Below, one piece after another: positions 1-22,342 of a DNA stretch of 64,000 nt (its first letter is position 1; the number at the start of each line of letters is the position of its first letter). Below the pieces are notes generated by a model that saw nothing but the letters and a program-made list of their open reading frames with translations, was not told the DNA's origin and searched no databases. This DNA is from Patescibacteria group bacterium (GTDB lineage Bacteria > Patescibacteriota > Patescibacteriia > UBA11705 > DATKZF01). Location: NCBI GenBank assembly GCA_049319825.1, contig JBMORT010000006.1, positions 235,641-299,640 on the forward strand. The letters are read 5' to 3'. Made by a program: the position numbers and the translations under genes.

Positions 1-13
1 ATCGGCTGAAAAA

Positions 14-3000
14 ATGCCGCATGACGAGAAGTTTTTATATCTGGAAGAAGGCATCCGGACCGGCCAAGTCACTGAACAGCAGCTGATGTCCCTGATCGAC
101 CGGGCAAATGAAGATGACGGTGAGCTGTGGCTCGAGTTTGACCAAGAATTGCTGGATTACCTGCTCACGGCCTATCCGCAGCCCGAAAAGTTCGCGAATT
201 TTATCCTCAGTCATGAAGGGATTGATGCGGACGAATATCCGGATGTCCAGGAAGTTTTAAAATGTTTTGAAATGGTCGATCGAGAAAACAAAGAAAGTAA
301 AAAAGACGCTTGGTTTTCTAGTTATAATAAACAAACGATGCGCGACGCCTGGATAAAAATAATGAGCAATATGTCAACCGAGCAAAGCGACAAGCTGATG
401 GATTTTATCGCGCGCCTCAGCCAACAAAATTTTGACAAATATCAGGTGCTGATCGATCCACTATTTAAGAATTACGATCTCAGAGAGCGGAAGAAAAAGA
501 CCGTCTATAAAAAACGGCAGCGCCGAAAAGAAGAAGTTGAAGGCAATGTGGTCAGGCTAAATGACAATCTTTGGCGCTTGCTGCCGCGCTTTGTCGAACT
601 CAAAGATTTGTACGGTCATGACGAATACATAAAAAAATACATCGAATTGCGAAAACGATTTCACGATGACCACCTAGCTGATGCCGAGGTGATTGATGAG
701 CTGAGAAAGCAGCACCCGAAAGAATCGAAAATCGAAATTCGAAAACGGTTTGTTAATAAACGAAGGGAAATATCGCGCGCGGCCTTTGAAAATATATATG
801 AAGAAATGACGCCGAGGGAAAGGGGACAATATTTCTACAAAATTTTCAGGGAAGAGGTCTGGAGTGAGATTTCCGACACGGTGAGGGAGGGAAAATTCAA
901 GCTTGACGAAATGGAATTTACCGAAAAGGAAAAAGATTTTTTGATCAGAAAATCGCACGACGAACCCGATTTACTGCTCGCCGTTTTCGACTTGATTAAA
1001 CGCGACAGGGGAGCAAAGTATTTGCAGCAGATCATTTTAAATTACATTCAAAGCGGCAGCGAGCTCGTCAGTCATTTAATCCAGACCGGAAATTTCGATA
1101 CGTTCGATAAAAAGACCCAGAAAGCTTTATGCGATGCCGAGATTGCCAGCGTCGAATACGTAATTTCAGATAAATTGTTACAGTTTTCCGGCCATTTGGA
1201 TGTTTTCGATATTAAAAAGTGGTTTGAAAAAATTGCTCGCGACGCTGACATTTCATTGTTGTTAGCCGCTGATAAGGTTTTTAATTTGATTAAGCGGCAT
1301 CCCGAGAGCGGCTTGACCAAAGAGCAGGTCAATCAGACGCTGCGACAAATAATAATTAATTCGCCGGTGGCGGCGATCAGCAAGCCCGGAGTCCGGCTGA
1401 TGCGCGAGATTTATCCCGAGAAAGAAGCGCAGCTTAAGCTGTACAGAAAAGTCGCGTCCAGCTCGGCTTACGGTCTGCTTAAATATTTAAGCTATTTGGA
1501 GGATGGCGAGGCGCCGGAGCTTGACCGCCGATTTTTACTCGAGCAGGTCAATAAATTGTATTTTGATTTTAGAATGCATGACTGGAATCTAAAAGGGATT
1601 AACAAGCTGCTCGGCGGCGTCGCGGGGGTGATGCGGTTTGTCTATGATCACATCAGCGGCATCAATCCGGAAATCGCGGCGTATTTGATTAACGTGCATT
1701 ACCGGGAGGCCCTGTCGATATGCGGCAAGATTTTGGATTATTATGTGGATAAAAATCCCTCAGCCGTTCTGCAAATTTCCAGTGAATTCATCGGCCGTAA
1801 AAAGAACGACAATCGATTCGTTTTAAATCGGATCGAGCAAGTGCTGAAAAGGAATCCGGACATGGTGGCGTCGGAATCAATATTGCGCGGCTTGAATGAT
1901 TTCATCGACATTCCCGAAGTCGGCGCTTATTTAAAAAAGAACATTAAAGAGATAATATCGCGCAATCCCACGTTCACTTCGCAAAATGCCCGAATTTACT
2001 TAAATTATATTTCCGAGGAAGAATTCCTGGAAATAATTCAAAGCCAGGAGGCGGTGTATGCCGGTTATGTGATCGACCGGAAATCTCCTTTGCTGGCCGC
2101 TTTTCCGCAATTGAATCGCGTAAAGATATTATCAAAATACCCGCATGTACTCTATGAAAGTGGATTTTATAAATACCGCATCGAAGAGAATTTGCCTGAA
2201 GTTTATGAGCAGAATCCGCTGGATTTTTTAATGAATAGCCTAAAAGATAAAGCGTTTTATGGATTTTGGAGACAAAAGCTAGAAAAAGAAGCCCACAGAT
2301 TACAAAAGAGCGGCGCTGTCAGAATCAGCCCGACGATTGAAAGTTTGGCGGAAAAAGTGTGCGTGTTATCGGGCAGCCGCTATGCCGGCCGGATTGCCGA
2401 TGAGATTGGCAGTATTTCCGGAGAATCCGACAGGGAAAAATATCTGGATATGGCCTTTAATGTCATTAATTTGGGGCTGGAAAGTAAAATCAATGCTCGG
2501 GGGCGCATTTTGACGCAGCTGATTTCTCTTTTACGAGGCGAAGCAGATAATGTCTTTGGCATCAGCGCGGAAAATGTCGATGAGACCAGCGTTATCTTTA
2601 AAGAAATGGAGCCGTTTTTGACTCATTTTAGAAATCAGGGGAACATTGTCGAAGTCAGGCAGCTGATGAGGGAAGTCATCGACGCTGAACTAAACGGAGT
2701 ATTTTACAATTGGCGGTTTTGGGACGCAAAAAAGCCAGCGCTCGGCGAGACGGACAAGGAAGCCGGTCTGAAAAACCTGAAGCAAAAAGGTTTGCTCCCC
2801 GACAAATTGACCATGGCGCAATATGAAGAATGGATCGCCGAAGATTCCTCGAGCCTGGCTGAAAGTTTTTCCTATGAAATCAATGAAGTGCGGGAAGAGC
2901 TATTCAATATCTTGCGTTACTCTCTGGATAATAGTCACGCGGAATTGTCCATGAGCGAATTTTCCATTGACGAGGCGCAGCTGCGGTTTTTATTGGCGGA

Positions 3001-3889
3001 CGATAATATGCGCAATATCAACGTTGAACTCAGTCAGATCAGAAAAATTATCGCCCAAAATAAGCAGCGGGCAAAAGAAGGCCAAAAGCCGCTCGAATAT
3101 GACGAGGACAGGCTCGAAGCGCTGACCGAGCAATTCGAGCTGGCCAAGGAGGAGCTGAACCAAAGAAAAATCAGGTCGTTTATTTCAAGGATTATCCATC
3201 TTACAGCCCGGGAAGTCCTTGACGGCGGGGTGTATTTAAAAGGCGTGGCGGAAAATAAAGGCGCGGGGCCGTTTGTCCCTTTCGGCAAGGTTTTTGCTTT
3301 TTTAAGAAATGCTTATTCGTCCAACCAGGCTTTTCACGACGATCTGGACAGGATGGAGAACGTCATCGCTCAGTACCGGGCGCAAGAAGCGGGAGAAGGC
3401 CTTGGTAAGGAGGAGTACACTTTCACTGACACCGCGGACATATTAACCATGATCAAAATCGGAGCGGATCCGGTGGCCTCCTGCCAGAGCTATAAAAGCG
3501 AATCCAGCTACGCCACCAGCCTGATGTCTTACGTCGCTGATCCCAATACCAAAGCGTTTATTGTCAAAAAGCCGGACGGATCACTGGTGGCCAGGGCGAT
3601 CGCCAGATTATTAAGCGATGAGGGGGGTAATCCATTCATTGTGCTTGAACCCATGTACTCGGTGAATACTCATCCGCGGCTGCAGGTTTTATTGGCCAAT
3701 GTGGTCAAGCAGAAGGCCGCAAAGCTCGGAATCAAAGCCGTTGTCAGCCGCGGCGGCTATCCTGCCGGCGGTGAACCGGCGCCGGTATTATACAGCCGTG
3801 GCAGCAGGAATATTAATACTTATGTTGACAATATCGGCTCCAAAGCTTATAAGGGAAAATACCAGATCGCGTATGGAATTGAGCTGTAA
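14..3889 (+). CDS. large hypothetical protein (1291 aa), K/E-rich, predicted mostly helical, no signal peptide
   Basis: Uninterrupted 3.9 kb ORF. I recognise no family motifs. Intergenic gap and T-rich terminator-like sequence after the stop at 3889. Confidence 0.5.
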   Translation: MPHDEKFLYLEEGIRTGQVTEQQLMSLIDRANEDDGELWLEFDQELLDYLLTAYPQPEKFANFILSHEGIDADEYPDVQEVLKCFEMVDRENKESKKDAWFSSYNKQTMRDAWIKIMSNMSTEQSDKLMDFIARLSQQNFDKYQVLIDPLFKNYDLRERKKKTVYKKRQRRKEEVEGNVVRLNDNLWRLLPRFVELKDLYGHDEYIKKYIELRKRFHDDHLADAEVIDELRKQHPKESKIEIRKRFVNKRREISRAAFENIYEEMTPRERGQYFYKIFREEVWSEISDTVREGKFKLDEMEFTEKEKDFLIRKSHDEPDLLLAVFDLIKRDRGAKYLQQIILNYIQSGSELVSHLIQTGNFDTFDKKTQKALCDAEIASVEYVISDKLLQFSGHLDVFDIKKWFEKIARDADISLLLAADKVFNLIKRHPESGLTKEQVNQTLRQIIINSPVAAISKPGVRLMREIYPEKEAQLKLYRKVASSSAYGLLKYLSYLEDGEAPELDRRFLLEQVNKLYFDFRMHDWNLKGINKLLGGVAGVMRFVYDHISGINPEIAAYLINVHYREALSICGKILDYYVDKNPSAVLQISSEFIGRKKNDNRFVLNRIEQVLKRNPDMVASESILRGLNDFIDIPEVGAYLKKNIKEIISRNPTFTSQNARIYLNYISEEEFLEIIQSQEAVYAGYVIDRKSPLLAAFPQLNRVKILSKYPHVLYESGFYKYRIEENLPEVYEQNPLDFLMNSLKDKAFYGFWRQKLEKEAHRLQKSGAVRISPTIESLAEKVCVLSGSRYAGRIADEIGSISGESDREKYLDMAFNVINLGLESKINARGRILTQLISLLRGEADNVFGISAENVDETSVIFKEMEPFLTHFRNQGNIVEVRQLMREVIDAELNGVFYNWRFWDAKKPALGETDKEAGLKNLKQKGLLPDKLTMAQYEEWIAEDSSSLAESFSYEINEVREELFNILRYSLDNSHAELSMSEFSIDEAQLRFLLADDNMRNINVELSQIRKIIAQNKQRAKEGQKPLEYDEDRLEALTEQFELAKEELNQRKIRSFISRIIHLTAREVLDGGVYLKGVAENKGAGPFVPFGKVFAFLRNAYSSNQAFHDDLDRMENVIAQYRAQEAGEGLGKEEYTFTDTADILTMIKIGADPVASCQSYKSESSYATSLMSYVADPNTKAFIVKKPDGSLVARAIARLLSDEGGNPFIVLEPMYSVNTHPRLQVLLANVVKQKAAKLGIKAVVSRGGYPAGGEPAPVLYSRGSRNINTYVDNIGSKAYKGKYQIAYGIEL

Positions 3890-4003
3890 AGAGCGCCAAA
3901 CGAAAAATTAATCAGTCCCGCTTCGCGGGACGCTTTTTTTACTCAATTTACCCCCAAAAGGATTTGATTTTATGGCTGATTTTTGATAAAATACAGGCAC
4001 TTT

Positions 4004-5089
4004 ATGAAAAAAGTCCTGCATTTAATCACCGGCCTTGAGCCTTATGGAGGAGCTGAAAAAATGCTGCTGAAAACTTTGCCATACCTTAAAAAGACTGAAA
4101 ACATGGTTTGCTGCGTGACCGGCCACGGCTCCATCGGCTCTGAGCTCGAGCGCAGCGGCGTTCCGGTGCGCTATTTAAATGTCCAAAGCAAATTTGATCC
4201 GCGGGTCGTTTGGCGTTATCGGAGCGTGATCAAAGAGTATGCGCCGGATCTGCAGGTCAATTACCTGATTCACGCCGATTTATTCGGCAGAATATTCGCC
4301 AAGCTGTTCGGAGTTAAAAAAGTGATCGCCTATATTCGAAACAAGCATTTGGATTTGCCCCTGTTATTGAAGCTGGACAAATTGACTTTGAGAAAAATCG
4401 ACTTTTTCCTGTTTAATTCAAACGCGGTAAAAAATTTTTACATTGAAAAGCTTGGGATTTCGGCAGATAAAACAAAATGCATTCCCAACGGAATTGATCT
4501 TTCGAAGTTTGCAATTGAATTTGACAGGATGGCGAAGAGAAAAGAGCTTGGGCTGGCCGGCGATGATTTTGTGATAATAAACATTGCCCGGCTTTATCCG
4601 AGCAAGCGGCAGATTGATATTTTGCGGGCAATGCGAAAAATCGGCAACCCGAAAATAAAATATATTCAAGTGAGCGTCGGCGATGAAGAAGACGTTTTAA
4701 AAACATTTGTTGAAGAGAATGGTCTTCAAAATCAGGTGAAATTTTTGGGATATCGAAATGATATTGTCGAACTTTTAAGAACAGCTGACTTGTATATTTC
4801 CGCTTCGACTCATGAAGGCATGAGCAACTCATTGCTTGAGGCAATGGCCAGCGGCCTGCCGTGCGTTGTTTCCGATATTCCCGAAAATGCCGAGCTGATT
4901 AAAAATAAGCAAAATGGCATTACTTTTAAAGCGGAAGATTCCGATGATCTGGCAATGAAGCTGAAAGAAGCGATTGAAAATTTGGAAAAGATGAAAGAGT
5001 TTGGAAAAAAAGCCAGGAGAACGGTTGAGGGAAATTATAATATAAATAAAATTATTACTCTGCTTGATGAGTTTCTGTGCGAATTTTAA
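4004..5089 (+). CDS. glycosyltransferase family 4 (GT-B, GT1/GT4 superfamily)
   Basis: C-terminal motif EGMSNSLLEAMASGLPCVVSDIPENAELI, typical of GT4 donor-binding domains. N-term MKKVLHLITGLEPYGGAE. The ORF could start at 3983 instead. Confidence 0.8.
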   Translation: MKKVLHLITGLEPYGGAEKMLLKTLPYLKKTENMVCCVTGHGSIGSELERSGVPVRYLNVQSKFDPRVVWRYRSVIKEYAPDLQVNYLIHADLFGRIFAKLFGVKKVIAYIRNKHLDLPLLLKLDKLTLRKIDFFLFNSNAVKNFYIEKLGISADKTKCIPNGIDLSKFAIEFDRMAKRKELGLAGDDFVIINIARLYPSKRQIDILRAMRKIGNPKIKYIQVSVGDEEDVLKTFVEENGLQNQVKFLGYRNDIVELLRTADLYISASTHEGMSNSLLEAMASGLPCVVSDIPENAELIKNKQNGITFKAEDSDDLAMKLKEAIENLEKMKEFGKKARRTVEGNYNINKIITLLDEFLCEF

Positions 5090-5158
5090 TTACGAGATGT
5101 ACGAGATTTGTATACAAGATAGTACAAGAAAACCAAATGAATTGATATTTTTATAAAT

Positions 5159-6271
5159 ATGAGGTTTTTAATCATCGCCCCGAGATACCATATTAACCTT
5201 CACGACCGGATAAAAGCGCTGCAAAAGGCCGGCCATTCAGTTGATCTGATTGTCCAATACAAGGGAAAGTCAGAAAAATACGACTTGATAGAGCCGCAAG
5301 TGATCGGCTACGCGAAATTTTATTTATTTATCGATAAATTTTTAAAAATATTTCAAAAAAGTAATTTAAAAAATTCATGGCAGCTAAAGCTGTCATATCC
5401 TCCTTTGAAAACTTTCAGAAATAAAATAAAAGAAATAAATCCTGACGCAATGATCATCAAAGGATTGAAAAGCTTGTTTTCACTATGCGCGCTTCGTTAC
5501 GCTAAAAAATTTGGCATCAAGTCGATTGTTTTTATTCAGCGGGATCGATTTCGTTGTCAAAGCTTGAAAGAAAAATTTATCTGCTGGCTTTTATTCAAAC
5601 ATTATAAAGTCAAAGCAGTCGCTTCTCCTATTTGTAAAATGGATGGGATTGACAAGCAAAGCCATGAGAAATTTCATTATATTCCTTTTGTTTACGATAT
5701 TATTGACTTTGAAAAATCATATTTTAAAGACGGTAAAATAAATATTTTAAATATTGGCAAATTTGATAAAATTAAAGATCATTTGACGCTTTTGAAAGCA
5801 ATTGAGAAATTAAGAAGCTTTTATCCGATAAAAGTTGTATTGGTCGGTGAAAAAGCTGATCCGAGCTATGTTTTGAAATTAATGGATTTTGTCAAAGAAA
5901 AAAGAATGGAAGATATTGTAGAGTTTAAGTTTGAAGTGCCGCATAATCAGGTGATTGATTTGTACCGGCAGAGCGATTTGTTTGTTTTAACCAGCTATCA
6001 GGACCCGGCATCACTCCAGCCCTTGGAAGCAATGGCCAATAAAGTGCCGGTGATTTCCAGCGATAAAAACGGCACCAAATGTTATATCAAAGAAGCCGAG
6101 AATGGCTATATTTTCAAGAGCCAAGATGTCGATGATTTGGCGCGAAAAATTGAAAGCGTGATTGATGACAAGGATGATGTGATTAATATGGGCAAGGCCG
6201 GGTTTGAGATGGCTAGGGCAAAGCATTTATTGAATTTATTTGAAGAAAAGATTAAAGAAATAATTACATGA
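5159..6271 (+). CDS. glycosyltransferase family 4
   Basis: Motif QDPASLQPLEAMANKVPVISSDKNGTKCYIKEAENGYIF (E-x7-E GT4 signature region). About 370 aa. Confidence 0.75.
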   Translation: MRFLIIAPRYHINLHDRIKALQKAGHSVDLIVQYKGKSEKYDLIEPQVIGYAKFYLFIDKFLKIFQKSNLKNSWQLKLSYPPLKTFRNKIKEINPDAMIIKGLKSLFSLCALRYAKKFGIKSIVFIQRDRFRCQSLKEKFICWLLFKHYKVKAVASPICKMDGIDKQSHEKFHYIPFVYDIIDFEKSYFKDGKINILNIGKFDKIKDHLTLLKAIEKLRSFYPIKVVLVGEKADPSYVLKLMDFVKEKRMEDIVEFKFEVPHNQVIDLYRQSDLFVLTSYQDPASLQPLEAMANKVPVISSDKNGTKCYIKEAENGYIFKSQDVDDLARKIESVIDDKDDVINMGKAGFEMARAKHLLNLFEEKIKEIIT

Positions 6272-7092
6272 AAGAGATTTGCGGGGATAATTTCGGAGAA
6301 AATAAATTAACAATCGGCAATCGAGTAAAATATCTTTTGTTAAATTTTTTCAGAGGCATCAACGGCTACAGAAAGCGATTGAAAAGCAAATATTGGACGC
6401 CGATTAAATTCATAGCCAATAGTTCCTCGCCGTCTAGGCAATATATTGATAATTTTTTAATGCATAAATTTCCAGAAATATTTCCGAGAAAGGAAATAAA
6501 AGTGCTGGATATCGGCTGCGGATCCGGATATGTGAGGGAAATTTTAAATAAACTCGGTTATGAAGTTGATTATACGGGAGTCGATGTCTATCGGCATGAG
6601 CAGTTTGATGATTTCAACCGATTTTGCGTGAAGCCAAGATTTATCCAATCCGAAATAGAAAACCTAGATTTGGATGAAAAATACGATTTAATAATTTCAA
6701 TCAGCGCGCTGGAGCATATCAAGGATGATAAGCTGGCAGTGGAAAAATCCGAGCGGCTGCTGAATCCCGGCGGCGTGGTGATTCATATAGTGCCGTCGTT
6801 TTGGGCTTTATTTCTGTATTTATGGCATGGATATCGGCAGTACACGCCGGCGTTAATTAATAAATTATTCGCGAATAGAGATATTACGGCGTATCGGCTG
6901 GGCGGATTCCTTTCATTTGGCGCGCATTGGGCGCTGATAACCATTCCGGAATTTTTTTCTTCCCAAAATATCAGGCAAACCGGCTTTTATAAAAACTATA
7001 TATATTTTTCGGCGAAATTCGATAAATTTTTGCCGGTTGGATCAACCATTTGGGCTATTGTTTATAAATATGGAAATAACAAAAATATTTAG
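6268..7092 (+). CDS. class I SAM-dependent methyltransferase
   Basis: Motif I VLDIGCGSGYV; downstream LISISALEHIKDD and LLNPGGVVI (MTase motifs II/III, post I). Start overlaps the upstream GT stop (ATGA). Confidence 0.7.
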   Translation: MKEICGDNFGENKLTIGNRVKYLLLNFFRGINGYRKRLKSKYWTPIKFIANSSSPSRQYIDNFLMHKFPEIFPRKEIKVLDIGCGSGYVREILNKLGYEVDYTGVDVYRHEQFDDFNRFCVKPRFIQSEIENLDLDEKYDLIISISALEHIKDDKLAVEKSERLLNPGGVVIHIVPSFWALFLYLWHGYRQYTPALINKLFANRDITAYRLGGFLSFGAHWALITIPEFFSSQNIRQTGFYKNYIYFSAKFDKFLPVGSTIWAIVYKYGNNKNI

Positions 7093-7765
7093 AAAATATC
7101 CGTATAGTGATCGCGAGAGCCGCAATAAATTCATCGCCGCCGAATTCGGTCAATGGCTTGGAGCGAGTGTCTTAAATATCGGCGGCGGGGGGCGGCATCA
7201 TTTAAAAAAATACCTAGCGGCAGATAAACAATATTTTGAATTGGATATTGACGGCGATCCGGATTTGAAAATTAACTTGGAGACGGATTTGCCGCTGCCG
7301 GTTGCGGACCGGCAGTATCAAACAGTCGTTTGCACCGACGTTCTGGAACATCTCGATAATTTGCATCGAGTTTTTGGCGAAATCGTCAGGATCTCCGGAA
7401 AATACATCATTTTATCCCTGCCAAACGCTTTTGCCGATTGCCCGTCATATTTTTTAGGGAAACCATATCAAAATGATTCCATCGAGAGAAAAAAACATTT
7501 CGGAAAATACATGAAATATTACGGGCTGCCCTATGAACCGCCGCCGGATCGCCATAAGTGGTTTTTTAGCTTTACTGAAGCTGAAGAATTCATCGATTAT
7601 CAAATCCATAAATACAATTTAAAATTAGTCACTGCAATGGCGATCGAAAGGGAATCGAATTTGCCGGGGCGAGTGGCGACAAGATTATTATGTTTGTTAG
7701 GAGGTCGAAACTTAGGGAAAGATTTATCCTTAAAAACAATATGGTGCGTTTTTGAAAGACAATAA
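7070..7765 (+). CDS. SAM-dependent methyltransferase (type 11-like)
   Basis: LNIGGGGRHH ... VVCTDVLEHLDNL ... ISGKYIILSLPN. Start uncertain; the ORF opens at 7037 and overlaps the previous gene. Confidence 0.6.
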   Translation: MEITKIFRKYPYSDRESRNKFIAAEFGQWLGASVLNIGGGGRHHLKKYLAADKQYFELDIDGDPDLKINLETDLPLPVADRQYQTVVCTDVLEHLDNLHRVFGEIVRISGKYIILSLPNAFADCPSYFLGKPYQNDSIERKKHFGKYMKYYGLPYEPPPDRHKWFFSFTEAEEFIDYQIHKYNLKLVTAMAIERESNLPGRVATRLLCLLGGRNLGKDLSLKTIWCVFERQ

Positions 7766-7767
7766 AT

Positions 7768-8418
7768 ATGTTAAATATTTTGGAAAAAATTTTTGTCTGG
7801 CTGCATAACTTTTCGTATAAAGCGATTTCGAAAATCGCGATTAAAAAAAATAATGGCATTCATCCTAAGCATGAGATTTTAGGATACCATCAATTTTTTG
7901 TTGATAATGTCGCGGCCGGCGATGCTGTTTTGGATATCGGCTGCGGCAATGGGCTTTTAGCCGGCAGTATCGCTCAAAAAGCGAAAAAAGTGGTTGGTAT
8001 TGATATTGTCCGTAAAAATATTGAAAATGCTCAGGCCCACAATAAGTCTGATAATCTGGAATTTATTTTAGGAAATGCGATCGTTTATGAGTTTAATGAA
8101 AAATTTGATAAGATTGTTTTGTCAAACGTATTGGAACATATTGAGAACAGGATAGATTTTTTAATAAAAACAGGTCGTTTGAGTGATTTAATTTTAATTC
8201 GAGTGCCCCTGATCAATAGAGACTGGCTGGCGGTTTACAAAAAAGAAAATGGACATGAATATCGGCTGGATAAAACTCATTTTATCGAATATACTGTTGA
8301 TAGTTTGAGAAAAGAATTAACTCAAGCTGGGTGGAATTTGGATTCTTATTCGATTCAGTTTGGCGAGCTATGGGGAGTGTTAAAAAAATGTGAATGTTAT
8401 AAAAAAGAAAACTATTGA
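7768..8418 (+). CDS. class I SAM-dependent methyltransferase
   Basis: VLDIGCGNGLLAGSIAQKAKKVVGIDIVRKNIENA and IVLSNVLEHIENRIDFL. Confidence 0.7.
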   Translation: MLNILEKIFVWLHNFSYKAISKIAIKKNNGIHPKHEILGYHQFFVDNVAAGDAVLDIGCGNGLLAGSIAQKAKKVVGIDIVRKNIENAQAHNKSDNLEFILGNAIVYEFNEKFDKIVLSNVLEHIENRIDFLIKTGRLSDLILIRVPLINRDWLAVYKKENGHEYRLDKTHFIEYTVDSLRKELTQAGWNLDSYSIQFGELWGVLKKCECYKKENY

Positions 8419-9637
8419 AGTGCTGCGGCGACTACAGGGGTGGACTAAAACCGACATGGTTTATTTGGCCAAAGGCTGTTTTTGGCTTACATTTGGGCAG
8501 GCGATAACAGCCGTGTCCAGTTTTTTATTGGCGATCGCCTTTGCCAATTTATTATCTCCGGAAGAGTACGGCATGTATAAATACGTGCTGTCCGCAGTAA
8601 TTATTTTATCAATTCCAACTCTGGACGGGATGAACTCGGCCATTGTCCGGGCCGTGGTCAGGGGATTCGACGGCTCGGTCAAGCCGATCATCAAGCTTAG
8701 GATACGCTGGGGTTTGTTCGGCGGGCTGGCCAGTTTGGCTTTTGCCGGATATTATTGGTATGTGGGTCAGAGTTCTTTGGCGATCGCTTTTTTGATTGTC
8801 AGCGCATTCGTGCCATTTCTTGATTCCATAAATTTGTACACCGGCTTTTTAATGGACAGAAAAGAGTTCAAAACGTTGTCAATTTACAATGTCATCATTT
8901 CCGTCGGCGCGGCGATCGTTGTGGCCGGGACGTTGTTTTTTACAAAAAATATATTTTTTCTGATATTCGCGTATTTTTTTTCCAATACATTGCTCAGACT
9001 GATTATAACTTTGGTTACGTTAAAAAAATATCAACTAAACGACCGCCGCGAAGCAGATACGGTCAGCTATGGCAAGCACCTGAGCTTGATGGGAATAATA
9101 TTAAAAATCGCTGATCAGCTGGATAAGGTTTTGATTTTTAATTTTTTGGGCGCGGCGCAGGTGGCGGTTTATTCATTCGCCATTTTGCCGGTGCAGGAAG
9201 CGCGGCTGCCGCTGAGGAATTTGGGAGTGATTTCCCAGCCCAAGTTCAGCCAGCGGAGCATCGCCGAGCTTAAAAAGCATCTGCCGCCGAAGATGCTGAA
9301 ATTTTTTCTGGTACTGGTATTTTTCGTGGCCACTTACATTATTTTTTCTCCAATTATATTTAAAGTATTTTTTCCGCAGTATTTGGATTCAGTGGCGTAT
9401 TCCCAGGTTTATTCCTTATCGCTTTTGTTTTTTCCGGCCATGTTTTTGCTTAGAGTATTGATCGCTCACGCTCAAAAGCGGCAATTATACTGGCTGAGAA
9501 TTGCCGTTCCGGCATTTAAAGTGATTTTCTTTTTCATTGCATTGCCAGTTTGGGGCATCTGGGGCGCGATCGCGTCGCAGCTTGCCGCTGAAGCGGCCAA
9601 TGCCGGCTTGCTAATATATTATTTTAATAAATTGTAG
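8390..9637 (+). CDS. polysaccharide/oligosaccharide flippase (Wzx-like, MOP superfamily)
   Basis: 415 aa, about 12 predicted TM helices. N-terminal pattern LLAIAFANLLSPEEYGMYKY is typical of Wzx. Lies inside the glycan gene cluster. Confidence 0.65.
   Translation: MNVIKKKTIEVLRRLQGWTKTDMVYLAKGCFWLTFGQAITAVSSFLLAIAFANLLSPEEYGMYKYVLSAVIILSIPTLDGMNSAIVRAVVRGFDGSVKPIIKLRIRWGLFGGLASLAFAGYYWYVGQSSLAIAFLIVSAFVPFLDSINLYTGFLMDRKEFKTLSIYNVIISVGAAIVVAGTLFFTKNIFFLIFAYFFSNTLLRLIITLVTLKKYQLNDRREADTVSYGKHLSLMGIILKIADQLDKVLIFNFLGAAQVAVYSFAILPVQEARLPLRNLGVISQPKFSQRSIAELKKHLPPKMLKFFLVLVFFVATYIIFSPIIFKVFFPQYLDSVAYSQVYSLSLLFFPAMFLLRVLIAHAQKRQLYWLRIAVPAFKVIFFFIALPVWGIWGAIASQLAAEAANAGLLIYYFNKL
9333..9439 (+). repeat. 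107-bp segment of the flippase 3' region, duplicated exactly at 10733-10839; diverged homology continues to the flippase stop
   Basis: Identical string cttacattattttttctccaattatatttaaagtattttttccgcagtatttggattcagtggcgtattcccaggtttattccttatcgcttttgttttttccggcc at both loci. Downstream the two copies stay alignable (about 70% at protein level) for ~200 bp. Confidence 0.8.
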
Positions 9638-9641
9638 GATT

Positions 9642-10478
9642 ATGATAAATAAAGAAATCTCTGATATAATTTTATCGCGGCTGAGTGAAGATAGTCTCGT
9701 TTTGGACATCGGCGGCGGCCGAATGCCGTGGTTTCGGGCGAATTATATCATCGATAAAAGAAGGTACGAAAATAGAGTCGGAGATGTTGCTTTTGGAGGC
9801 CGCGAAGAACAAAAGCAGCATTTCAATAAAGACACTTGGATTGAGCATGATTTTTATGATTTGCCTTGGCCGTTTGAGGATGGTTTTTTCGATTTTTCCG
9901 TATGCATGGGGACCCTAGAGGACTTGAGGGATCCTTTGGTTATTTGCCAGGAGATTCAACGAGTTTCAAAAGCGGGGTATATTTCAACTCCCACCAGGGC
10001 GGCGGAAAGTTTTTTTAATTTAAGCTTGGATCCAAGATCGAATAATTTACCAGGCTATTTCCACCATCGGTGGTTCGTGGAAATATTGAACGGTGGTTTA
10101 ATTTTTACGATGAAGACCCCGCTTATTATCCAGCATAAAAGATGGCAGGTAAAAAAATTCAAGCAGCACACGCTTAATTTTTTCTGGGATAAAAATTTTC
10201 AATATAAAGAACATTATGTCGGTGACCACGCCGAAGCGCTGAGAGATCTAAAAAATTTTTATCAGGATCATAAAAATTGGCTTAAAAATTTTGATGAAAG
10301 CAATATTGAAACTCTGAAAAGATACAATTATTGGCCTGACGGATGGGAGAAGTGGCCCGCATTTCAATCCATGTTCAATCCGATTGAAAAAAAGCTGGAC
10401 AATAGATTGAAGGTAAAATTCATTGATGCTTTAAGTAAAAAAATATTCATTAAAATTAATTCGATGAGAAAGAAATAA
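9642..10478 (+). CDS. putative SAM-dependent methyltransferase
   Basis: LVLDIGGGRMPW (motif I-like) ... FDFSVCMGTLEDLRDP ... EIQRVSKAGYIS (type 11 MTase pattern). Confidence 0.5.
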   Translation: MINKEISDIILSRLSEDSLVLDIGGGRMPWFRANYIIDKRRYENRVGDVAFGGREEQKQHFNKDTWIEHDFYDLPWPFEDGFFDFSVCMGTLEDLRDPLVICQEIQRVSKAGYISTPTRAAESFFNLSLDPRSNNLPGYFHHRWFVEILNGGLIFTMKTPLIIQHKRWQVKKFKQHTLNFFWDKNFQYKEHYVGDHAEALRDLKNFYQDHKNWLKNFDESNIETLKRYNYWPDGWEKWPAFQSMFNPIEKKLDNRLKVKFIDALSKKIFIKINSMRKK

Positions 10479-10538
10479 GGTTATGGGAGAAAAATCCCAT
10501 TATCACTTCCATAGATAGGAGACGAGGAAGTAAACGAG

Positions 10539-11063
10539 GTGATCGAAGTATTAAAATCAGGCTGGCTGGCTCCAGGAGAATACAATAAAATGTTCGAATC
10601 GGATTTCGCCAAGTTGGTAGGGGCGAAGCATGCAATTACTATGAATTCTTGCGCGTCCGCACTCGAAATCGCGCTCAAAGCCAATAATATCAAGGGCGAA
10701 GTTATTATTCCGAGTTTTACATTCGTGGCCTCTTACATTATTTTTTCTCCAATTATATTTAAAGTATTTTTTCCGCAGTATTTGGATTCAGTGGCGTATT
10801 CCCAGGTTTATTCCTTATCGCTTTTGTTTTTTCCGGCCGTTTTTTTGGTGCGAGTACTGGTGGCGCATGCCAGAAAAATTGAATTATACTGGCTCAGGAT
10901 AGTCATTCCCATGCTCAAAATCGCTTTATTATTGATTCTATTGCCGTTATTGGGTATCTGGGGCGGAATAATTTCATTGCTGTCTGCGGAATTGATTAAT
11001 GCCATTATGTTGCTCTATTTTTTTAAAAAGATGCCGGTTGATTGGATCAGCGGCTACTATTAA
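10539..11063 (+). pseudogene. chimeric remnant: N-terminal ~65 aa of a DegT/DnrJ/EryC1/StrS sugar aminotransferase fused in frame to a duplicated copy of the flippase C-terminus
   Basis: First 65 aa (EVLKSGWLAPGEYNKMFESDFAKLVGAKHAITMNSCASALEIALKA...IIPSFTFVAS) match the conserved N-terminus of DegT-family PLP aminotransferases, which are normally ~370 aa. At nt 10733 the sequence switches into the 107-bp exact repeat of the flippase gene and continues as a diverged flippase C-terminal TM region. Confidence 0.55.
10733..10839 (+). repeat. second copy of the 107-bp exact repeat (see 9333-9439)
   Basis: Exact identity to 9333-9439. Flanking 8 bp tcgtggcc also conserved. Confidence 0.8.
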
Positions 11064-11083
11064 CGATCGAACTTTATAATAAT

Positions 11084-12199
11084 ATGCATAAAACGCGAAT
11101 ATTCATCGATTTTCCAATTTCCGATTCCAAGGAATTTCAAGGATTGTCATTCCCTCAGGTTTTACACGATTATTTAGTGACCCGAGACGACGTTGAACTG
11201 GTCGGAGAACATGATCAATTCGACGTCATATTAATTCTTAACGGTGGATCTCATTTTATCAGCAAAGCGGAAAAAGCCAAAACGCTTCTGGCCGCGCAGT
11301 TAAATCGTTTGTTCAAAAGAAAGATCGATTACGATAGATTTTTAAAAAGAAACATTCCCTACGAAAAGAGAATTGATGGGCTATTGGCAAAAAATCCCGG
11401 CGCCAAAGTCGCGCTTCGGCTGGATGACCGGTATAAAATGCTTTGTAAGGTGTATGGGTTCGATAAAACCGTGAAAAAATTTATTAAGCAGGCTGACATT
11501 GTCATCTTCCAGTCTGAATACTGTAAATCGCTTTTTACAAAAGGAGTCCACTCGATTTTTGGATTTGAAAAACCGGTTAATGTCAAACGCAGCGTGGTTA
11601 TTCATAATGGTGTAGACACGGAAGTTTTTTCTCCGCAAGGAGGTAGGGTTGATTTGGACGGTAAATATAAAATATTGCATGTCGCAGCAACTGGTATGGT
11701 GAGAAAGGGCTTAGGGAAAGTTTTGGAATATGCACATTTGCTCAAAGATAATCCGCAAATTCAGTTTTTTTTGGTCGGCAAGCAGGCGGAAGATCCGATA
11801 TACGGCGCCGACATTAACAAATTTGGCAATGTGCATCAGCTGGAATTCACCACGGACCGCTACCAACTCGCTCAATATTATCGCAGCTGCGACTTATTAT
11901 TATTCCCTTCGATTAACGATTGCGCGCCGAATGTGGTGCTGGAAGCGATGAGCTGCGGCCTGCCGGTTCTGGCCGCCGACAGCGGTGGCACGCCGGAAAT
12001 GATAATCAAAGAAGATTTAAAAGGCGGGTTGCTGATAAATGACCAGAATCCAATTTATCCGCTTAAGGAAATATTGGAAAATATTATGGATTTTAAGACA
12101 AATGCCCTGCGCTTAATCGATCAATATCATAAAAAAGAAGTAATCGGCCAGCAGTATTTTGATGCATTACAATCAATCGTCTATGAAAAAAACAATTAA
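11084..12199 (+). CDS. glycosyltransferase family 4
   Basis: LLFPSINDCAPNVVLEAMSCGLPVLAADSGGTPEMI. ORF opens at 11042, but that overlaps the pseudogene; ATG at 11084 preferred. Confidence 0.75.
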   Translation: MHKTRIFIDFPISDSKEFQGLSFPQVLHDYLVTRDDVELVGEHDQFDVILILNGGSHFISKAEKAKTLLAAQLNRLFKRKIDYDRFLKRNIPYEKRIDGLLAKNPGAKVALRLDDRYKMLCKVYGFDKTVKKFIKQADIVIFQSEYCKSLFTKGVHSIFGFEKPVNVKRSVVIHNGVDTEVFSPQGGRVDLDGKYKILHVAATGMVRKGLGKVLEYAHLLKDNPQIQFFLVGKQAEDPIYGADINKFGNVHQLEFTTDRYQLAQYYRSCDLLLFPSINDCAPNVVLEAMSCGLPVLAADSGGTPEMIIKEDLKGGLLINDQNPIYPLKEILENIMDFKTNALRLIDQYHKKEVIGQQYFDALQSIVYEKNN

Positions 12200-12848
12200 A
12201 AAATTTTTATTATTTATTTTTCCGTCAAAATACCAGCTAAAGCTTTTATTTCGCGCTCAGTCGTTTATCGATAGTCGGATCAGCGATGCCTGCGTTGATT
12301 ATTATAAAGGGAGACATCCGAAACATTTTCTTTGGACGATTCATTACCAATTCGTGATTGACAATGTCGATACTGGCGACCGGGTTTTGGACGTCGGCAC
12401 CGGCGCCAGCTTGTCATACACTCAGGAGCTGGCCGCCAAAGCGGAGTCGATTGACTGCTGCGATATAAACCCAGAGCTGATCGAAAAATCCAGGCGAGGC
12501 AACAAATTTGCCAATGTCAATTACATTGTGCTCGATGTGACGCAACAGTTGCCGCCAGATAGTTATGACGTGGTCATTTTATCTCATGTTCTGGAGCATT
12601 TGCACGAACCTGAAAAAGTATTAGAAAATTTGAAAAATATAACCCGCAAATTGATTATCAGACTGCCGCGCTATGACGATCATTGGATGTATTTGGTAAA
12701 AAAAGATCTGGGCATGTTTTATTATAAAGATCATGATCATAAAAATGAATATACTTTACGCACGGCCGTTGATCTGGTGGAGAAAAGCGGCTGGCGCGTT
12801 CAAACGGCGTTAAATGACGTTGATGTGAAAATAGTGGCGACTTTATAA
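12159..12848 (+). CDS. class I SAM-dependent methyltransferase
   Basis: VLDVGTGASLSYTQELAAKAESIDCCDINPELIEK ... VVILSHVLEHLHEPEKVL. Start may instead be the M at 12183. Confidence 0.7.
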   Translation: MMHYNQSSMKKTIKKFLLFIFPSKYQLKLLFRAQSFIDSRISDACVDYYKGRHPKHFLWTIHYQFVIDNVDTGDRVLDVGTGASLSYTQELAAKAESIDCCDINPELIEKSRRGNKFANVNYIVLDVTQQLPPDSYDVVILSHVLEHLHEPEKVLENLKNITRKLIIRLPRYDDHWMYLVKKDLGMFYYKDHDHKNEYTLRTAVDLVEKSGWRVQTALNDVDVKIVATL

Positions 12849-12851
12849 TTT

Positions 12852-14630
12852 ATGTGCGGTATTGCCGGTTATATAACCAAAAATCAAGTTGATGAAAAGG
12901 TTTTAATCAAGATGAGAGACGCGCTTTCTCACCGTGGTCCGGACGATGCCGGCATTTTTATTTCCGCCGACAACAAAGTCGGCTTGGCGCACCGCCGGCT
13001 GTCCATTTTGGATTTAAGTCCGGCCGGGCACCAGCCCATGAGCTCAGCGGATGAAAAGATTTGGATTACTTTCAACGGAGAAATTTATAATTTTCTGGAA
13101 ATAAGAAAAGAGCTGGAAAATAAGGGGCAGACATTTAAAAGCAATGGCGACACGGAGGTAATTATTTACGCCTATAAAGAATTTGGAACCGGCTGTTTGG
13201 AAAAATTCAACGGCATGTTTTCTTTTGTAATTTATGATTCAAGTAAGAATCAATTATTTTTCGCCCGCGACCGGTTCGGCATAAAGCCTTTTCATTACGG
13301 ATTTTTGCCCAATGGTGATTTTGTCTTTGCCTCTGAGATTAAAGCGATTGTTCAACATCCCAATTTTCAAAAAGAAATTGATTATGGCGCGCTCGGCGAT
13401 TATTTCAAATACCGCTATATTCCTTCGCCGCGAACCATTTGGAAAAGTATAAAAAAACTGCCTCACGGGCATTTGGGCATATTAAATTTGGATAATTTTG
13501 ATTTGAAAATTGAAAAATATTATGATTTGCCGGAAAAAATCATTGGCCAGCCGAATTCAAGCATTGAACAAGTGGAAGAATTGATCAAGGACGCTGTGAA
13601 AAAAAGACTGATCAGCGATGTCGAAGTGGGAACATTTTTAAGCGGCGGCATTGATTCCAGCTCGATCAGCTATTTTGCCAATAAAGAGCATGAAAAAATC
13701 AAATCATTTTCAATCGGCTTCATGCCGGAAAAATACAGTGAATTAGAGGATTCAGAAATTGTCGCCGAGTTTTTGGGCACCAGTCATATAACCAAAGTGA
13801 TTGAAAATGTTGAGGATGACATTGGAGACCAATTATCTTATACATATGACGAACCACATGCTGATAGTTCAAATATCCCGACTTATTTATTGTCAAAAAT
13901 GACTTCAGAAAATGTTAAAGTCGCTCTGTCAGGCGACGGCGGCGATGAAATTTTTGCGGGTTATCGCTGGTATCGCCAGTATTTATTGGATAGTAAAATC
14001 GAGAAAATAAAAGCGTTATTTGGCACCGGACAAAGTATAAGCGAAGATTTTGAAAATTATTATAATAAGTTGTTACTTAATCGTTTCGACGAAAACAAAT
14101 TTAAAAATCTTTTTGCTCCGGAAATATATAATCAAGTCAAAAACAATGAAAATTTATTTGAAAAATATTTGAATGCAGGATTTAAAAATATCAGACAAAT
14201 ACAGTTTATTGATTTAAATACATTTATGGCGGACGATATTCTATCCAAGGTTGATCGTGCGAGCATGGCGCACGCCCTCGAGGTGAGAGTGCCGTTTCTG
14301 GATTATCGTTTGGTCGAAGCGGTTTTTCGTCTGCCGCAAAAAGATTTCCCCGATGATAGTTATGGCAAGCCGATTTTAAAAAAAATCATGAAAAATAAAT
14401 TGCCAAAGCGTGTTTTATCAAAAAGGAAAAAAGGCTTTTCCGCTCCGGTCACCCAGTGGCCGTTTTACGGTCGGATAAATCAAATTTTATTATCCGGCAG
14501 AGCGGTCGAAGACGGCATTATCCGGAAGGATTTTATTCAAGATTTGCTCGATAATAAATATGAAAACAGCGCCGGCATGCTCTGGATGGCGTATATTTTT
14601 GAGAAATGGTATCAAAAGTGGTTCATATGA
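12852..14630 (+). CDS. asnB: asparagine synthase (glutamine-hydrolysing)
   Basis: N-terminal MCGIAGYI (class II glutamine amidotransferase Cys2 nucleophile). SGGIDSS PP-loop. About 590 aa. Commonly embedded in glycan clusters. Confidence 0.85.
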   Translation: MCGIAGYITKNQVDEKVLIKMRDALSHRGPDDAGIFISADNKVGLAHRRLSILDLSPAGHQPMSSADEKIWITFNGEIYNFLEIRKELENKGQTFKSNGDTEVIIYAYKEFGTGCLEKFNGMFSFVIYDSSKNQLFFARDRFGIKPFHYGFLPNGDFVFASEIKAIVQHPNFQKEIDYGALGDYFKYRYIPSPRTIWKSIKKLPHGHLGILNLDNFDLKIEKYYDLPEKIIGQPNSSIEQVEELIKDAVKKRLISDVEVGTFLSGGIDSSSISYFANKEHEKIKSFSIGFMPEKYSELEDSEIVAEFLGTSHITKVIENVEDDIGDQLSYTYDEPHADSSNIPTYLLSKMTSENVKVALSGDGGDEIFAGYRWYRQYLLDSKIEKIKALFGTGQSISEDFENYYNKLLLNRFDENKFKNLFAPEIYNQVKNNENLFEKYLNAGFKNIRQIQFIDLNTFMADDILSKVDRASMAHALEVRVPFLDYRLVEAVFRLPQKDFPDDSYGKPILKKIMKNKLPKRVLSKRKKGFSAPVTQWPFYGRINQILLSGRAVEDGIIRKDFIQDLLDNKYENSAGMLWMAYIFEKWYQKWFI

Positions 14631-15781
14631 TAATCACAACAGACGGCAACATCCCTTCAAGATTTGCTCACAGCTTCAACGTGACAAAAATGGCGCAGGG
14701 TTTTTATAATATCGGCCAAGATGTTGAATTGGTCACTTTCTTCAGTCTTCGTAATTTATTGTATAAACTTAAAATAAAGGATATTTATGAATATTATGCT
14801 CTTTCAAAAAATATAAAAATAAAAATGCTCCCGGCTTTTGATAAAAATATTTTTATTAAAACGACAGGCGGTGAAAGATATAATAAAAAAGCTGCCCAAT
14901 ACATTGAATCTCAAAATCCCAATTTTGTTTTTTGCCGCAGTTATCTCACCCCTTACTACTGCGTCAAGCTCGGCTTGCCCACGATTATGGAAACGCATAC
15001 GACAAACTATGATTTGCCGGCGTTGCGAAAGTCATTCGGCGCGGCTAAAGATAAAAATTTTTTGGGATTGGTGACGATTAATGAAAAATTAAAAAAAGAA
15101 TATGCCAAAAGGGGAGTACCGGAAGAAAAAATAATTGTCTTGGAAGACGGCGTTGATTTGAATTTGTTTGATATCGAAGACGACAAAGAAATTTGGAGAA
15201 AGGAATTAAGCCTGCCTTCAGATAAAAAAATAATTGCCTATGTCGGCGGATTGTATAGGGAAAAAGGAATTGAACAGATTTTGCTGACTGCTCAAAAGCT
15301 GCAAACAACGGAAATTATATTTGTATTGGTGGGAGGCAAACAAGAGCAGATCAGGGAATGGAAAAAATATTGTGCTGAAAAAAATATTTCAAATGTCGCT
15401 TTTGCGGGATTTGCCTGTCAGTCTGACGTGCCTAAATACATAAAAGCGGCCGATGTTTTGATCATGCCGTATGATACGCGCATCAATTATAAAGTGATGG
15501 ATATCAATTCCACTTCGCCGCTGAAGCTTTTCGAATATATGGGATCAAAGCGTCCGATAGTTTCGACAGCCATTCCGGTAATTGAAAAAGTGGTCAGCCA
15601 CAATGAGAGCGCCATGCTGGCCGAGTCCAACAATGTTGAACAATTGGCCCAGTATGTGAGAGAGTTATTGAATAATCCTGAAAGAGGCGGACAGCTGAGT
15701 GAAAAGGCATTTAAATTGGCTAAGCAATATGAATGGAAAGTCCGATGTGAAAAAATTATCAAAACTTTTATAAAAAATTAA
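14627..15781 (+). CDS. glycosyltransferase (GT4-like)
   Basis: IIAYVGGLYREKGIEQILLTAQKL, and C-terminal PLKLFEYMGSKRPIVSTAIPVIEKVV, resembling the GT-B donor domain. ORF opens at 14606 and overlaps the asnB stop. Confidence 0.6.
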   Translation: MIITTDGNIPSRFAHSFNVTKMAQGFYNIGQDVELVTFFSLRNLLYKLKIKDIYEYYALSKNIKIKMLPAFDKNIFIKTTGGERYNKKAAQYIESQNPNFVFCRSYLTPYYCVKLGLPTIMETHTTNYDLPALRKSFGAAKDKNFLGLVTINEKLKKEYAKRGVPEEKIIVLEDGVDLNLFDIEDDKEIWRKELSLPSDKKIIAYVGGLYREKGIEQILLTAQKLQTTEIIFVLVGGKQEQIREWKKYCAEKNISNVAFAGFACQSDVPKYIKAADVLIMPYDTRINYKVMDINSTSPLKLFEYMGSKRPIVSTAIPVIEKVVSHNESAMLAESNNVEQLAQYVRELLNNPERGGQLSEKAFKLAKQYEWKVRCEKIIKTFIKN

Positions 15782-15828
15782 TAAATCATAAGGCCGAATT
15801 GATTATTTTTTCGGTCTTGATAAAAAAT

Positions 15829-16743
15829 ATGTCCAAATTCCTCATCACCGGCGGCGCCGGGTTTATCGGCGCGAATACAATTAAATATTTCCTGTCTCAA
15901 GGCCACGAAGTGGTTTCTTTTGACAATTATACGGCTGGTAAAAAAGAAGAGCGGTTCCATTCCCCAGCTAAATATGTCGAAGGCGATATCCGCGACATCG
16001 ATGCGTTGAACGCCGTTTGTGCCGAAGGCTTTGACGGCATTATGCATCTGGCCGCTTTGCCGCGCGTCACTTATTCGGTCGAGCACCCTCGCGAAACGCA
16101 CGATACAAACATTACCGGGACGCTGAACGTTCTTTTGGCCGCCAGAGACAATAATATTGAGAAGGTCGTTTTCGCCTCTTCTTCTTCGGTCTATGGCAAT
16201 CCCGATCAATTTCCTGTTGATGAGAATTTTGTTCCCAAGCCGATCAGCCCCTATGCACTTCATAAATTTACCGGTGAGCAGTATTGCCGCATTTTCAGCG
16301 AATTATTCGGGTTAAAAACCGTTGTTTTCAGATATTTTAATGTTTTCGGGCCATATTTTGACCCGGAAGGGCCTTATGCTTTGGTTATCGGTAAATTTAT
16401 CAAGCAGGTAAAGAATGGCGAGCCGATGACGATTTGCGGGGATGGGGAATATTATCGCGATTACGCGCACGCCTTTGACGTGGCCAGGGCGAATTTATTG
16501 GCCCTGACAAATGATGCGGTGGGCAAAGGAGAAATAATCAATATCGGCAGTAATAATCCTTTTTCAGTCAATGAATTGGCCAAACTTATTGGCGGAGAGT
16601 TTATTTATGTGGCCGAGCGGCCCGGAGACGTTCGAAAAACCTATGCTGACATTTCAAAGGCCAAGGAGTTGCTGAATTGGGAGCCGACCATTTCAATCGA
16701 AGAAGGGGTTGCCGAGCTGAAAAAAGAATGGGGATTAGTTTAA
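15829..16743 (+). CDS. NAD-dependent epimerase/dehydratase (UDP-glucose 4-epimerase family, SDR)
   Basis: ITGGAGFIGANTIKYF Rossmann motif; SSSSVYG; YALHK matches the catalytic YxxxK. Confidence 0.8.
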   Translation: MSKFLITGGAGFIGANTIKYFLSQGHEVVSFDNYTAGKKEERFHSPAKYVEGDIRDIDALNAVCAEGFDGIMHLAALPRVTYSVEHPRETHDTNITGTLNVLLAARDNNIEKVVFASSSSVYGNPDQFPVDENFVPKPISPYALHKFTGEQYCRIFSELFGLKTVVFRYFNVFGPYFDPEGPYALVIGKFIKQVKNGEPMTICGDGEYYRDYAHAFDVARANLLALTNDAVGKGEIINIGSNNPFSVNELAKLIGGEFIYVAERPGDVRKTYADISKAKELLNWEPTISIEEGVAELKKEWGLV

Positions 16744-19017: not shown

Positions 19018-19091
19018 TGGCTGCGGGACCAGGATTCGAACCTGGGTTACTTGGGCCAGAACCAAGCGTCCTACCGCTAGACGATCCCGCA
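19018..19091 (-). tRNA. tRNA-Gln (anticodon CTG), CCA encoded
   Basis: Minus-strand TGCGGGATCGTCTAGCGGTAGGACGCTTGGTTCTGGCCCAAGTAACCCAGGTTCGAATCCTGGTCCCGCAGCCA. 7-bp acceptor with U1-A72 and G73 (Gln-like). Anticodon loop TTCTGGC. T-loop TTCGAAT. Confidence 0.8.
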
Positions 19092-22165: not shown

Positions 22166-22342
22166 TCGTATTGATAAAAAACAATAAATTTATAATTTTG
22201 TCAAGGTGCCTGGTTCTTGATTTTTTCCCCCTTTTCCGCTATAATAATTGAATAATTTTAATATCACATGAGTATTTACTTTCGCATCAAAATATCTTAC
22301 CATTAATGCTGTAACGTTTTTATTAATTTGGCGACCTCTACA

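Follow-up and report, generated by a model that had tools for sequence, protein, structure and literature searches.

In a 64-kb stretch of DNA from a Patescibacteria group bacterium, hereafter the window, which comes from a metagenome-assembled genome (MAG), a polysaccharide biosynthesis cluster (window 3983-16743) contains a 174-amino-acid open reading frame (ORF; 10539-11063) that starts as a DegT aminotransferase and continues in frame into codons 312-415 of an oligosaccharide flippase, followed by 9 extra codons. We read this feature, with good though not full confidence, as a scar of recombination, without function, that lies in the variable centre of a locus for surface-glycan biosynthesis in a bacterium of the Patescibacteria, or candidate phyla radiation (CPR). 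The reading builds on elements that can be seen directly: the junction between the two fragments, the short microhomology in which it falls, additional lesions in the DegT piece, a relic flippase tail that bears the mark of selection, a sharp boundary at 9439/9440 in the resident flippase, and the position of the feature in the part of the locus that varies among relatives. The route that connects these elements we infer.

The DegT remnant and its junction with a flippase copy

The 5' part of the ORF is recognizable as a member of the DegT/DnrJ/EryC1 aminotransferase family. Residues 3-66 match the Pfam profile PF01041 (DegT_DnrJ_EryC1) over positions 13-78 of 360 (E = 7.7e-20; 71.8 bits, with a cut-off of 19.8), and the frame then passes into flippase codons 312-415. 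A first-pass annotation of the window had described this arrangement, a truncated DegT fused in frame to a flippase 3' end, and had called the ORF a chimeric pseudogene. Both descriptions held, and the remnant proved to be more damaged than had been noted, with a start near 10483, an internal TAG and an apparent 1-nt deletion in a run of A residues. A tblastn search with the full-length DegT of a related locus (L002) aligned residues 4-85 with 10488-10733 at 60% identity, and we place the remnant at 10483-10733 on the plus strand, corresponding to approximately codons 1-85 of ~365. The same search detected no further DegT segment elsewhere in the window, and the similarity ended at 10733; a full-length aminotransferase in a corrected frame, which the annotation had considered, is not present there. 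A search with the 80-amino-acid remnant returned seven short fragmentary proteins (102-128 amino acids) and confirmed that the native continuation of the protein reads ...FVA(S/T)ANAV.

Upstream of the ORF, the DegT frame carries two lesions. ATG 10483, the only plausible DegT start, lies 5 bases past the stop codon of the preceding methyltransferase gene (MT1) and is out of the DegT frame. One added A in the run at 10490-10494 would mend the frame to give M-G-E-K-I-P-L-S-L-P, and this run has apparently lost 1 nt, a -1 frameshift. In addition, three-frame translation revealed an in-frame TAG at 10512-10514, opposite a Tyr codon of the L002 homologue. Because the resident flippase itself ends in TAG, this codon is a genuine stop here. 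With an out-of-frame ATG and an in-frame TAG, the piece has no uninterrupted DegT frame. Nor does it have the full-length DegT fold (~360-390 amino acids, with the region of the pyridoxal phosphate (PLP)-binding lysine in mid-protein), the sequence past FVAS being flippase. Judged by these features, the DegT piece is a decayed remnant rather than a functional member of its family. The 174-amino-acid ORF, in which truncated DegT is fused in frame to a flippase 3' end, is a chimeric pseudogene, and we regard it as untranslated or meaningless: it has neither the start nor the PLP-lysine region of DegT, and three quarters of the flippase are missing from it. The debris is limited to ~580 bp (10483-11063). 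In annotation, the ORF should be flagged as a pseudogene and counted neither as an aminotransferase nor as a flippase; the scar records an amino-sugar step formerly encoded beside MT1.

The flippase part of the ORF is the second copy of a direct repeat whose first copy lies within the resident flippase gene. In an ungapped comparison, the longest exact run at an offset of 1399 was 107 nt (9333-9439, identical to 10732-10838), exactly as the annotation had stated. The first copy, R1 (9333-9439, plus strand), covers flippase codons ~315-350; the second, R2 (10732-10838, plus strand), reproduces it exactly, and the pair is the only long direct repeat of this kind in the window. On the 5' side of the run there is a single mismatch (A at 9332, T at 10731) and then 9 identical bases, TTCGTGGCC (9323-9331 and 10722-10730). 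On the 3' side of 9439/10838, identity drops abruptly to 62.6% over 195 nt, somewhat below the figure of about 70% given previously, with no indels and with the frame kept. The whole 300-nt repeat, identical part included, is 76% identical. Given the background identity of 62.6%, a perfect run of 107 nt has a probability of ~1.6e-22. The boundary is equally sharp at synonymous sites: where 107/107 identical positions give way to 62.6% identity, synonymous sites go from 0 differences to saturation.

The junction interval between DegT and flippase, TTCGTGGCCTCT (10722-10733, plus strand), has 11 of 12 nt in common with flippase 9323-9334. The microhomology is thus TTCGTGGCC-N-CT, in which TTCGTGGCC contributes 9 nt with 67% G+C and is followed by CT after the mismatch. 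On the flippase side (9323-9331, plus strand; mismatch at 9332), TTCGTGGCC corresponds to codons F-V-A of FFVATYII. FVA(S/T) is native to both partners, as part of the DegT motif PSFTFVA(S/T) and of the flippase motif FFVAT. That it is native to DegT follows from homologues, which read ...PSFTFVA(S/T)ANAV... past the break, and its occurrence in the flippase too is by chance. A comparison of an unrelated DegT gene with the resident flippase showed how rare such matches are, yielding a single pair that agreed at 11 or more of 12 positions. The crossover lies somewhere within 10722-10733, and finer placement is impossible.

The junction is probably not an assembly artefact. The source is a MAG and the 107-bp repeat forms a loop in the assembly graph, and one could suppose that two strain haplotypes, or the repeat, were mis-joined, the real genome having an intact DegT or lacking the insertion. 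We give this explanation a very slight chance. Logan contig L001 (run SRR32167788) matches window 9410-10761 exactly, with the junction in its interior and no branch toward an intact DegT. This contig was built independently, and it makes an assembly error at the junction, a concern voiced in the annotation, improbable. L001 spans the unique 1292 bp between the repeats and ends 30 nt into the repeat on either side, as expected if the 107-bp repeat forms a shared node in a k = 31 graph. Among exact look-ups in the contig index, only MT1 gave this contig, and those with the chimeric ORF and the flippase returned no match. Furthermore, the DegT/flippase junction shares only 9+2 nt, far under any assembler k-mer, and with one entry, one exit and one loop at the repeat, the sole linear path that uses the loop should be the assembled path.

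The resident and relic flippase tails

Beyond 9439/10838, the two flippase copies have different ends. The resident flippase ends in what we call the A tail, its last 65 codons and stop (9440-9637, plus strand). The relic ends in the B tail (10839-11063, plus strand), which comprises the final 74 codons of a second, deeply diverged flippase together with its stop, 23 nt upstream of the next gene. The second flippase copy (10722-11063) is far from full length and holds only codons 312-415 and the 9-codon extension. We compared the tails over 65 codons (9440-9634 for A and 10839-11033 for B). They differ at 73 of 195 nt (37%), with 25, 14 and 34 differences at the first, second and third codon positions (chi-square p = 0.016). 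By the Nei-Gojobori method, the proportion of synonymous differences (pS) is 0.71, which is saturated, and that of nonsynonymous differences (pN) is 0.275, giving a dN/dS of ~0.16. We also scored both tails against a hidden Markov model (HMM) of the family, built from 119 homologues with the window sequence left out. The B tail had 44.6 bits (44.6-45.3) and the A tail 45.6 bits, and the B tail was nearer than the A tail to 88 of the 119 homologue tails.

The first-pass annotation had explained the relic differently, as a local duplication. On this model, the flippase 3' end would have been copied into DegT and the copy would have decayed to ~65-70% identity before a recent gene conversion restored its first 107 bp. 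The geometry is in keeping with such a history: one copy follows the other in direct orientation at a distance of 1399 bp, and perfect identity adjoins divergence. By a narrow margin, each of the two tails also finds its best match in the other (alignment score 194, compared with 180 and 162 for the best homologues). However, the B tail does not resemble a decaying copy. In 2000 simulated copies of the A tail, taken by neutral decay to the same divergence, the family signal was erased (-0.2 +/- 5.0 bits, maximum 15.9, compared with 44.6 bits for the B tail). A stop was gained by 91% of these copies, only 9% remaining free of stops, and their amino-acid identity to the A tail was 35% (maximum 48%), compared with the 54% observed. 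A saturated pS alongside a pN of only 0.275, and the presence of 0 indels in 195 nt, likewise speak against decay. RecA-type conversion requires a minimum of homology, and between repeats that are 63% identical, with longest shared runs of ~13 nt, it would be unlikely to operate. We consider local duplication of the resident tail highly improbable. In the recombination that the annotation had envisaged, an illegitimate join that removed most of DegT does fit the 11/12-nt microhomology, whereas the sequence of local duplication, decay and then conversion finds no support.

Because the B tail has kept its fit to the family HMM, because its synonymous sites are saturated, because the decay simulations fail to reproduce it and because 88 of 119 homologues are nearer to it, we attribute the relic to a second, separately evolved functional flippase. 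On this evidence, the B tail formed part of a working flippase through a long evolution under purifying selection, and it has decayed little after its separation from the rest of that gene.

The variable centre of the locus and a proposed origin of the scar

The best syntenic relative of the cluster is locus L168 (ENA ERZ27256828 k141_4005742, 1-13281; compared with window 3983-15781), which carries the flippase homologue P0007. It has the order glycosyltransferase, glycosyltransferase, four methyltransferases, flippase, methyltransferase, radical-SAM protein, methyltransferase, AsnB and glycosyltransferase. Identities are considerable in the left flank (66% and 76% for the glycosyltransferases at 3983 and 5159; 64%, 55% and 74% for the methyltransferases at 6268, 7037 and 7768) and in the right flank (72% for AsnB and 67% for the glycosyltransferase at 14606). 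The flippase is syntenic, following a gene similar to the 7768 methyltransferase in both loci, but it is only 50% identical, and the L168 genes that lie between flippase and AsnB are without counterpart in the window. The cluster centre is also different in L003, L004 and L009. Since the flanks are conserved and the block from flippase to AsnB is unlike, the flippase and the block up to AsnB make up the variable centre. One source names the organism of the L168 flippase Candidatus Bipolaricaulota; if this label is right, the cluster type crosses phylum-level lineages.

The genes on either side of the scar are found in related loci. MT1 homologues occur in several related methyltransferase-rich clusters, and in L003 and L009 an MT1 homologue is directly followed by a homologue of the glycosyltransferase at 11087. 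The genes that flank the scar thus belong to the usual repertoire of such clusters. Among the 160 MT1-homologue loci that we scanned (GTDB genomes and JGI metagenomes), MT1 is followed by DegT in L002 only, and none has a flippase followed by MT1 or an intact MT1-DegT pair. In L002 (ENA ERZ25039480 contig_37371, 8815-11277), a DegT 5' fragment comes immediately after a homologue of MT1 (58% identity); as in the window, the fragment breaks within a few codons of PSFTFVA(S/T) and gives way to another gene. Unlike the window remnant, the L002 fragment (93 codons, with DegT codons 1-88) is a partial copy, 82-84% identical at the nucleotide level to the first ~260 nt of a full-length DegT that survives ~1.36 kb downstream, with a methyltransferase in between. 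Its neighbour is this second methyltransferase, not a flippase relic, and its frame is free of shifts and internal stops.

The window and L002 are the only two unbiased cases that bear on whether PSFTFVA(S/T) is a breakage hotspot or a chance match. A further DegT 5' fragment, L170:423-737 (a Tara scaffold, ENA ERZ28654028), is 62% identical to the window remnant; its DegT similarity ends after ...GIKGEVIVP, 5-7 codons before the break in the window, and a stop follows after 27 unrelated codons. It is not independent evidence for a hotspot, because the search that found it returned short fragments only.

Any model has to unite an MT1-adjacent DegT with a second flippase that matches the resident one as far as codon 350 and has an ancient divergence beyond it. 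We reconstruct the history of the scar as follows. Two versions of the locus centre would have come together, one with a flippase ending in the A tail, then MT1 and a DegT aminotransferase, and the other with a flippase ending in the B tail, then the GT4 glycosyltransferase of 11087. Their two flippases would have shared at least codons 312-350 without a difference, and probably more of the upstream sequence, with the last 65 codons anciently diverged. An illegitimate join at the 11/12-nt microhomology would have linked DegT codon ~85 to codon 312 of the second flippase, whose first three quarters would have been lost along with the remainder of DegT and whatever lay in the interval. The outcome would be two dead fragments fused in frame between two intact genes. 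Because the left edge of the identical tract is the cut point of the relic copy, that edge requires no separate coincidence, and identity may once have spanned the whole 5' part. Position 9439/9440 is the one real boundary, an older or simultaneous breakpoint at homologous codons of divergent flippases.

Several routes could have led to this outcome. The one we favour, at about even confidence, is an exchange between two co-existing locus haplotypes. Homology-facilitated illegitimate recombination could have brought it about, or a circularized fragment could have integrated through a single crossover in the shared 107 bp. A simple microhomology deletion, from DegT to a second full-length flippase once located downstream in the same genome, is a less probable course. 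A one-step replicative template switch, inserting the A tail, MT1 and the DegT 5' end into a flippase with duplication of the target, is more doubtful. Either a plain microhomology deletion or a template switch would give the same final sequence. We rejected a simple tandem duplication between the two microhomologies, under which the flippase relic would be followed by a second MT1 and an intact DegT, and the tails would not differ.

A functional arrangement, in which the chimera is translated into a small membrane protein or the 107-bp direct repeats serve as a switch, seems improbable to us, although parts of the locus are compatible with it. A hybrid flippase composed of the resident 5' part, the repeat and the B tail is in frame and has a full-length HMM score of 548.7, compared with 549.8 for the resident gene, and the B tail is without any lesion while the adjoining DegT remnant has two. 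Direct repeats of 107 bp with perfect identity can support homologous deletion. The repeats could make the locus metastable, RecA-mediated pop-out of a 1399-bp module (the A tail, MT1 and the DegT remnant) placing a B-tail flippase directly upstream of the glycosyltransferase; as a repeat-mediated glycan switch, this is quite improbable. If it did operate, the C-terminal 74 residues would be replaced and the specificity of the flippase altered, so that the population could hold two glycan types that differ by one methylation step, each paired with a flippase tail that suits it. Use in part of the population would then keep the relic tail intact, and an ultra-small CPR bacterium would possess a simple switch. 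However, such a deletion is irreversible unless the circle re-integrates, no recombinase, invertase or other switch machinery adjoins the repeats, and no second example was found. The fusion looks accidental, since the DegT part is without its start region, and the intact B tail may merely mean that the event was recent.

Some points weigh against a scar formed by exchange between two versions of the locus, and they are gathered here. A possible GAGGA motif lies ~11 nt upstream of GTG 10539, and some translation of the chimera is possible. The perfect 107 nt could reflect recent gene conversion rather than shared descent. The G+C content and GC3 of the segments gave no sign of which tail is native or foreign. 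A comparison of N-terminal homologue similarity with similarity to either tail was uninformative, the homologues all being about equally distant (45-53%). These comparisons of composition and affinity pointed neither to an order of events nor to one of the tails as native to the 5' part. No close relative was found in 5.8 billion proteins, GTDB species genomes and JGI metagenomes; the nearest homologues are 50% identical for the flippase and 60% for MT1. Finally, neither parental arrangement, an intact MT1-DegT pair or a B-tail flippase beside the 11087 glycosyltransferase, was seen in related genomes.

The surrounding locus and comparable systems

The 5' part of the cluster consists of 2 GT4 glycosyltransferases, 3 class I methyltransferases, the Polysacc_synt flippase, MT1 and the chimeric ORF. 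In the 3' part follow a GT4 glycosyltransferase (ATG 11087), a methyltransferase, an AsnB-like amidotransferase, a further GT4 glycosyltransferase and an NAD-dependent epimerase/dehydratase. The resident oligosaccharide flippase (8390-9637, plus strand; 415 amino acids) is a Polysacc_synt protein (Pfam PF01943, E = 2.8e-16) identical to NCBI MFZ5365195.1, an "oligosaccharide flippase family protein" from a Patescibacteria MAG. It is full length, with an HMM score of 549.8 across positions 3-415, and its 590 homologues have 414-430 amino acids at a query coverage of 88-100%. MT1, a class I S-adenosylmethionine (SAM)-dependent methyltransferase (9642-10478, plus strand; 278 amino acids; Pfam Methyltransf_11), lies between the two repeat copies and is identical to NCBI MFZ5365196.1, which is encoded, like MFZ5365195.1, on a 365-kb contig of that MAG; its homologues have 263-281 amino acids and are 53-60% identical. 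By their sequences, the resident flippase and MT1 look intact. The first intact gene past the scar encodes a GT4-family glycosyltransferase (11087-12199, plus strand; Pfam Glycos_transf_1), whose L004 and L009 homologues align from residue 1 of ATG-11087 at 55-60% identity. A promoter and terminator scan of 8000-12500 revealed nothing specific at the scar.

Gene orientation across the 64-kb window is unusually strict. All ORFs of at least 150 amino acids are on the plus strand, bar a few overlapping longer ORFs. GC skew exceeds zero in nearly all 1-kb bins, the cumulative skew climbing almost without a break. Exceptions are 3 of the 7 tRNA genes, which are on the minus strand (Gln 19018-19091, Lys 53648-53724 and Thr 59297-59372).

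Other features of the window lie outside the cluster. Approximately four tandem copies of a 21-nt unit (AAGATTCGGGTCGCTCGGCTC, 76-85% matches) occur at 18112-18199 in the 3' part of a dnaX-like gene (16974-18578); the protein would thereby contain a repeated 7-residue peptide toward its C terminus. At 28138-36756, three large ORFs in succession (561, 1417 and 806 amino acids) have bacterial Ig-like domains (Big_1 and Big_5), and each carries a conserved 68-nt block close to its 3' end (29479, 33698 and 36235). They lie in a stretch of raised G+C (0.50-0.56 at 30-34 kb, compared with ~0.43 elsewhere), adjoin a 1231-amino-acid ORF without a Pfam match, and are probably paralogous surface proteins. 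A 905-amino-acid ORF (39624-42341) with two matches to the Lamin Tail Domain (PF00932, E = 3.5e-28), a domain that is uncommon in bacteria, is probably a secreted or surface protein. An inverted pair of 40-nt sequences (22227-22266 and 53884-53923), 80% complementary and 31.6 kb apart, is intergenic at both sites, upstream of genes for an extracytoplasmic function (ECF)-type sigma factor (22328) and a P-type ATPase (54303). The pair is AT-rich with a TATAAT-like core and may be a promoter or leader motif shared on opposite strands, or a chance match.

The favoured route for the scar has a described counterpart. Homology-facilitated illegitimate recombination occurs in natural transformation of Acinetobacter and Streptococcus pneumoniae, where one end is anchored by homology and the other is joined at a short G+C-rich microhomology. 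The term appears in PMC6382021. The window shares with this process a short G+C-rich microhomology, TTCGTGGCC, at the junction and the truncated genes left behind; unlike in the described cases, the mechanism is here deduced from the scar alone.

The closest parallel to the locus as a whole is found in the O-antigen loci of Salmonella. There, remnants of wzy are present in groups B1 and D1, group D2 is a recombinant of D1 and E, and D3 has a partial wzy duplication (PMC3715488). The wzx genes of B1 and D1 differ at 33% of bases (PMC3715488). Similar to these loci, the window has truncated dead fragments at a junction in a variable centre between conserved flanks, and its flippase tails, like the wzx versions, differ by about a third (37%). 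In contrast to Salmonella, the locus is from an uncultured Patescibacteria MAG and is a methyltransferase-rich cluster whose parental clusters have not been observed; its junction has no insertion sequence (IS) or H-repeat, the join being a microhomology; and its flippase is of the Polysacc_synt family and at most 50% identical to anything in the searched databases. Our reading implies that uncultured Patescibacteria reshape their surface-glycan loci in the way known from the O-antigen and capsule loci of well-studied bacteria, with conserved flanks around a centre that changes fast and to which the flippase belongs. Flippases of strongly divergent sequence would be exchanged in the process, and illegitimate microhomology joins would leave dead fragments behind. 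Collectively, the scar is of a known kind, comparable to the gene remnants of O-antigen loci, and it is the lineage that is new.

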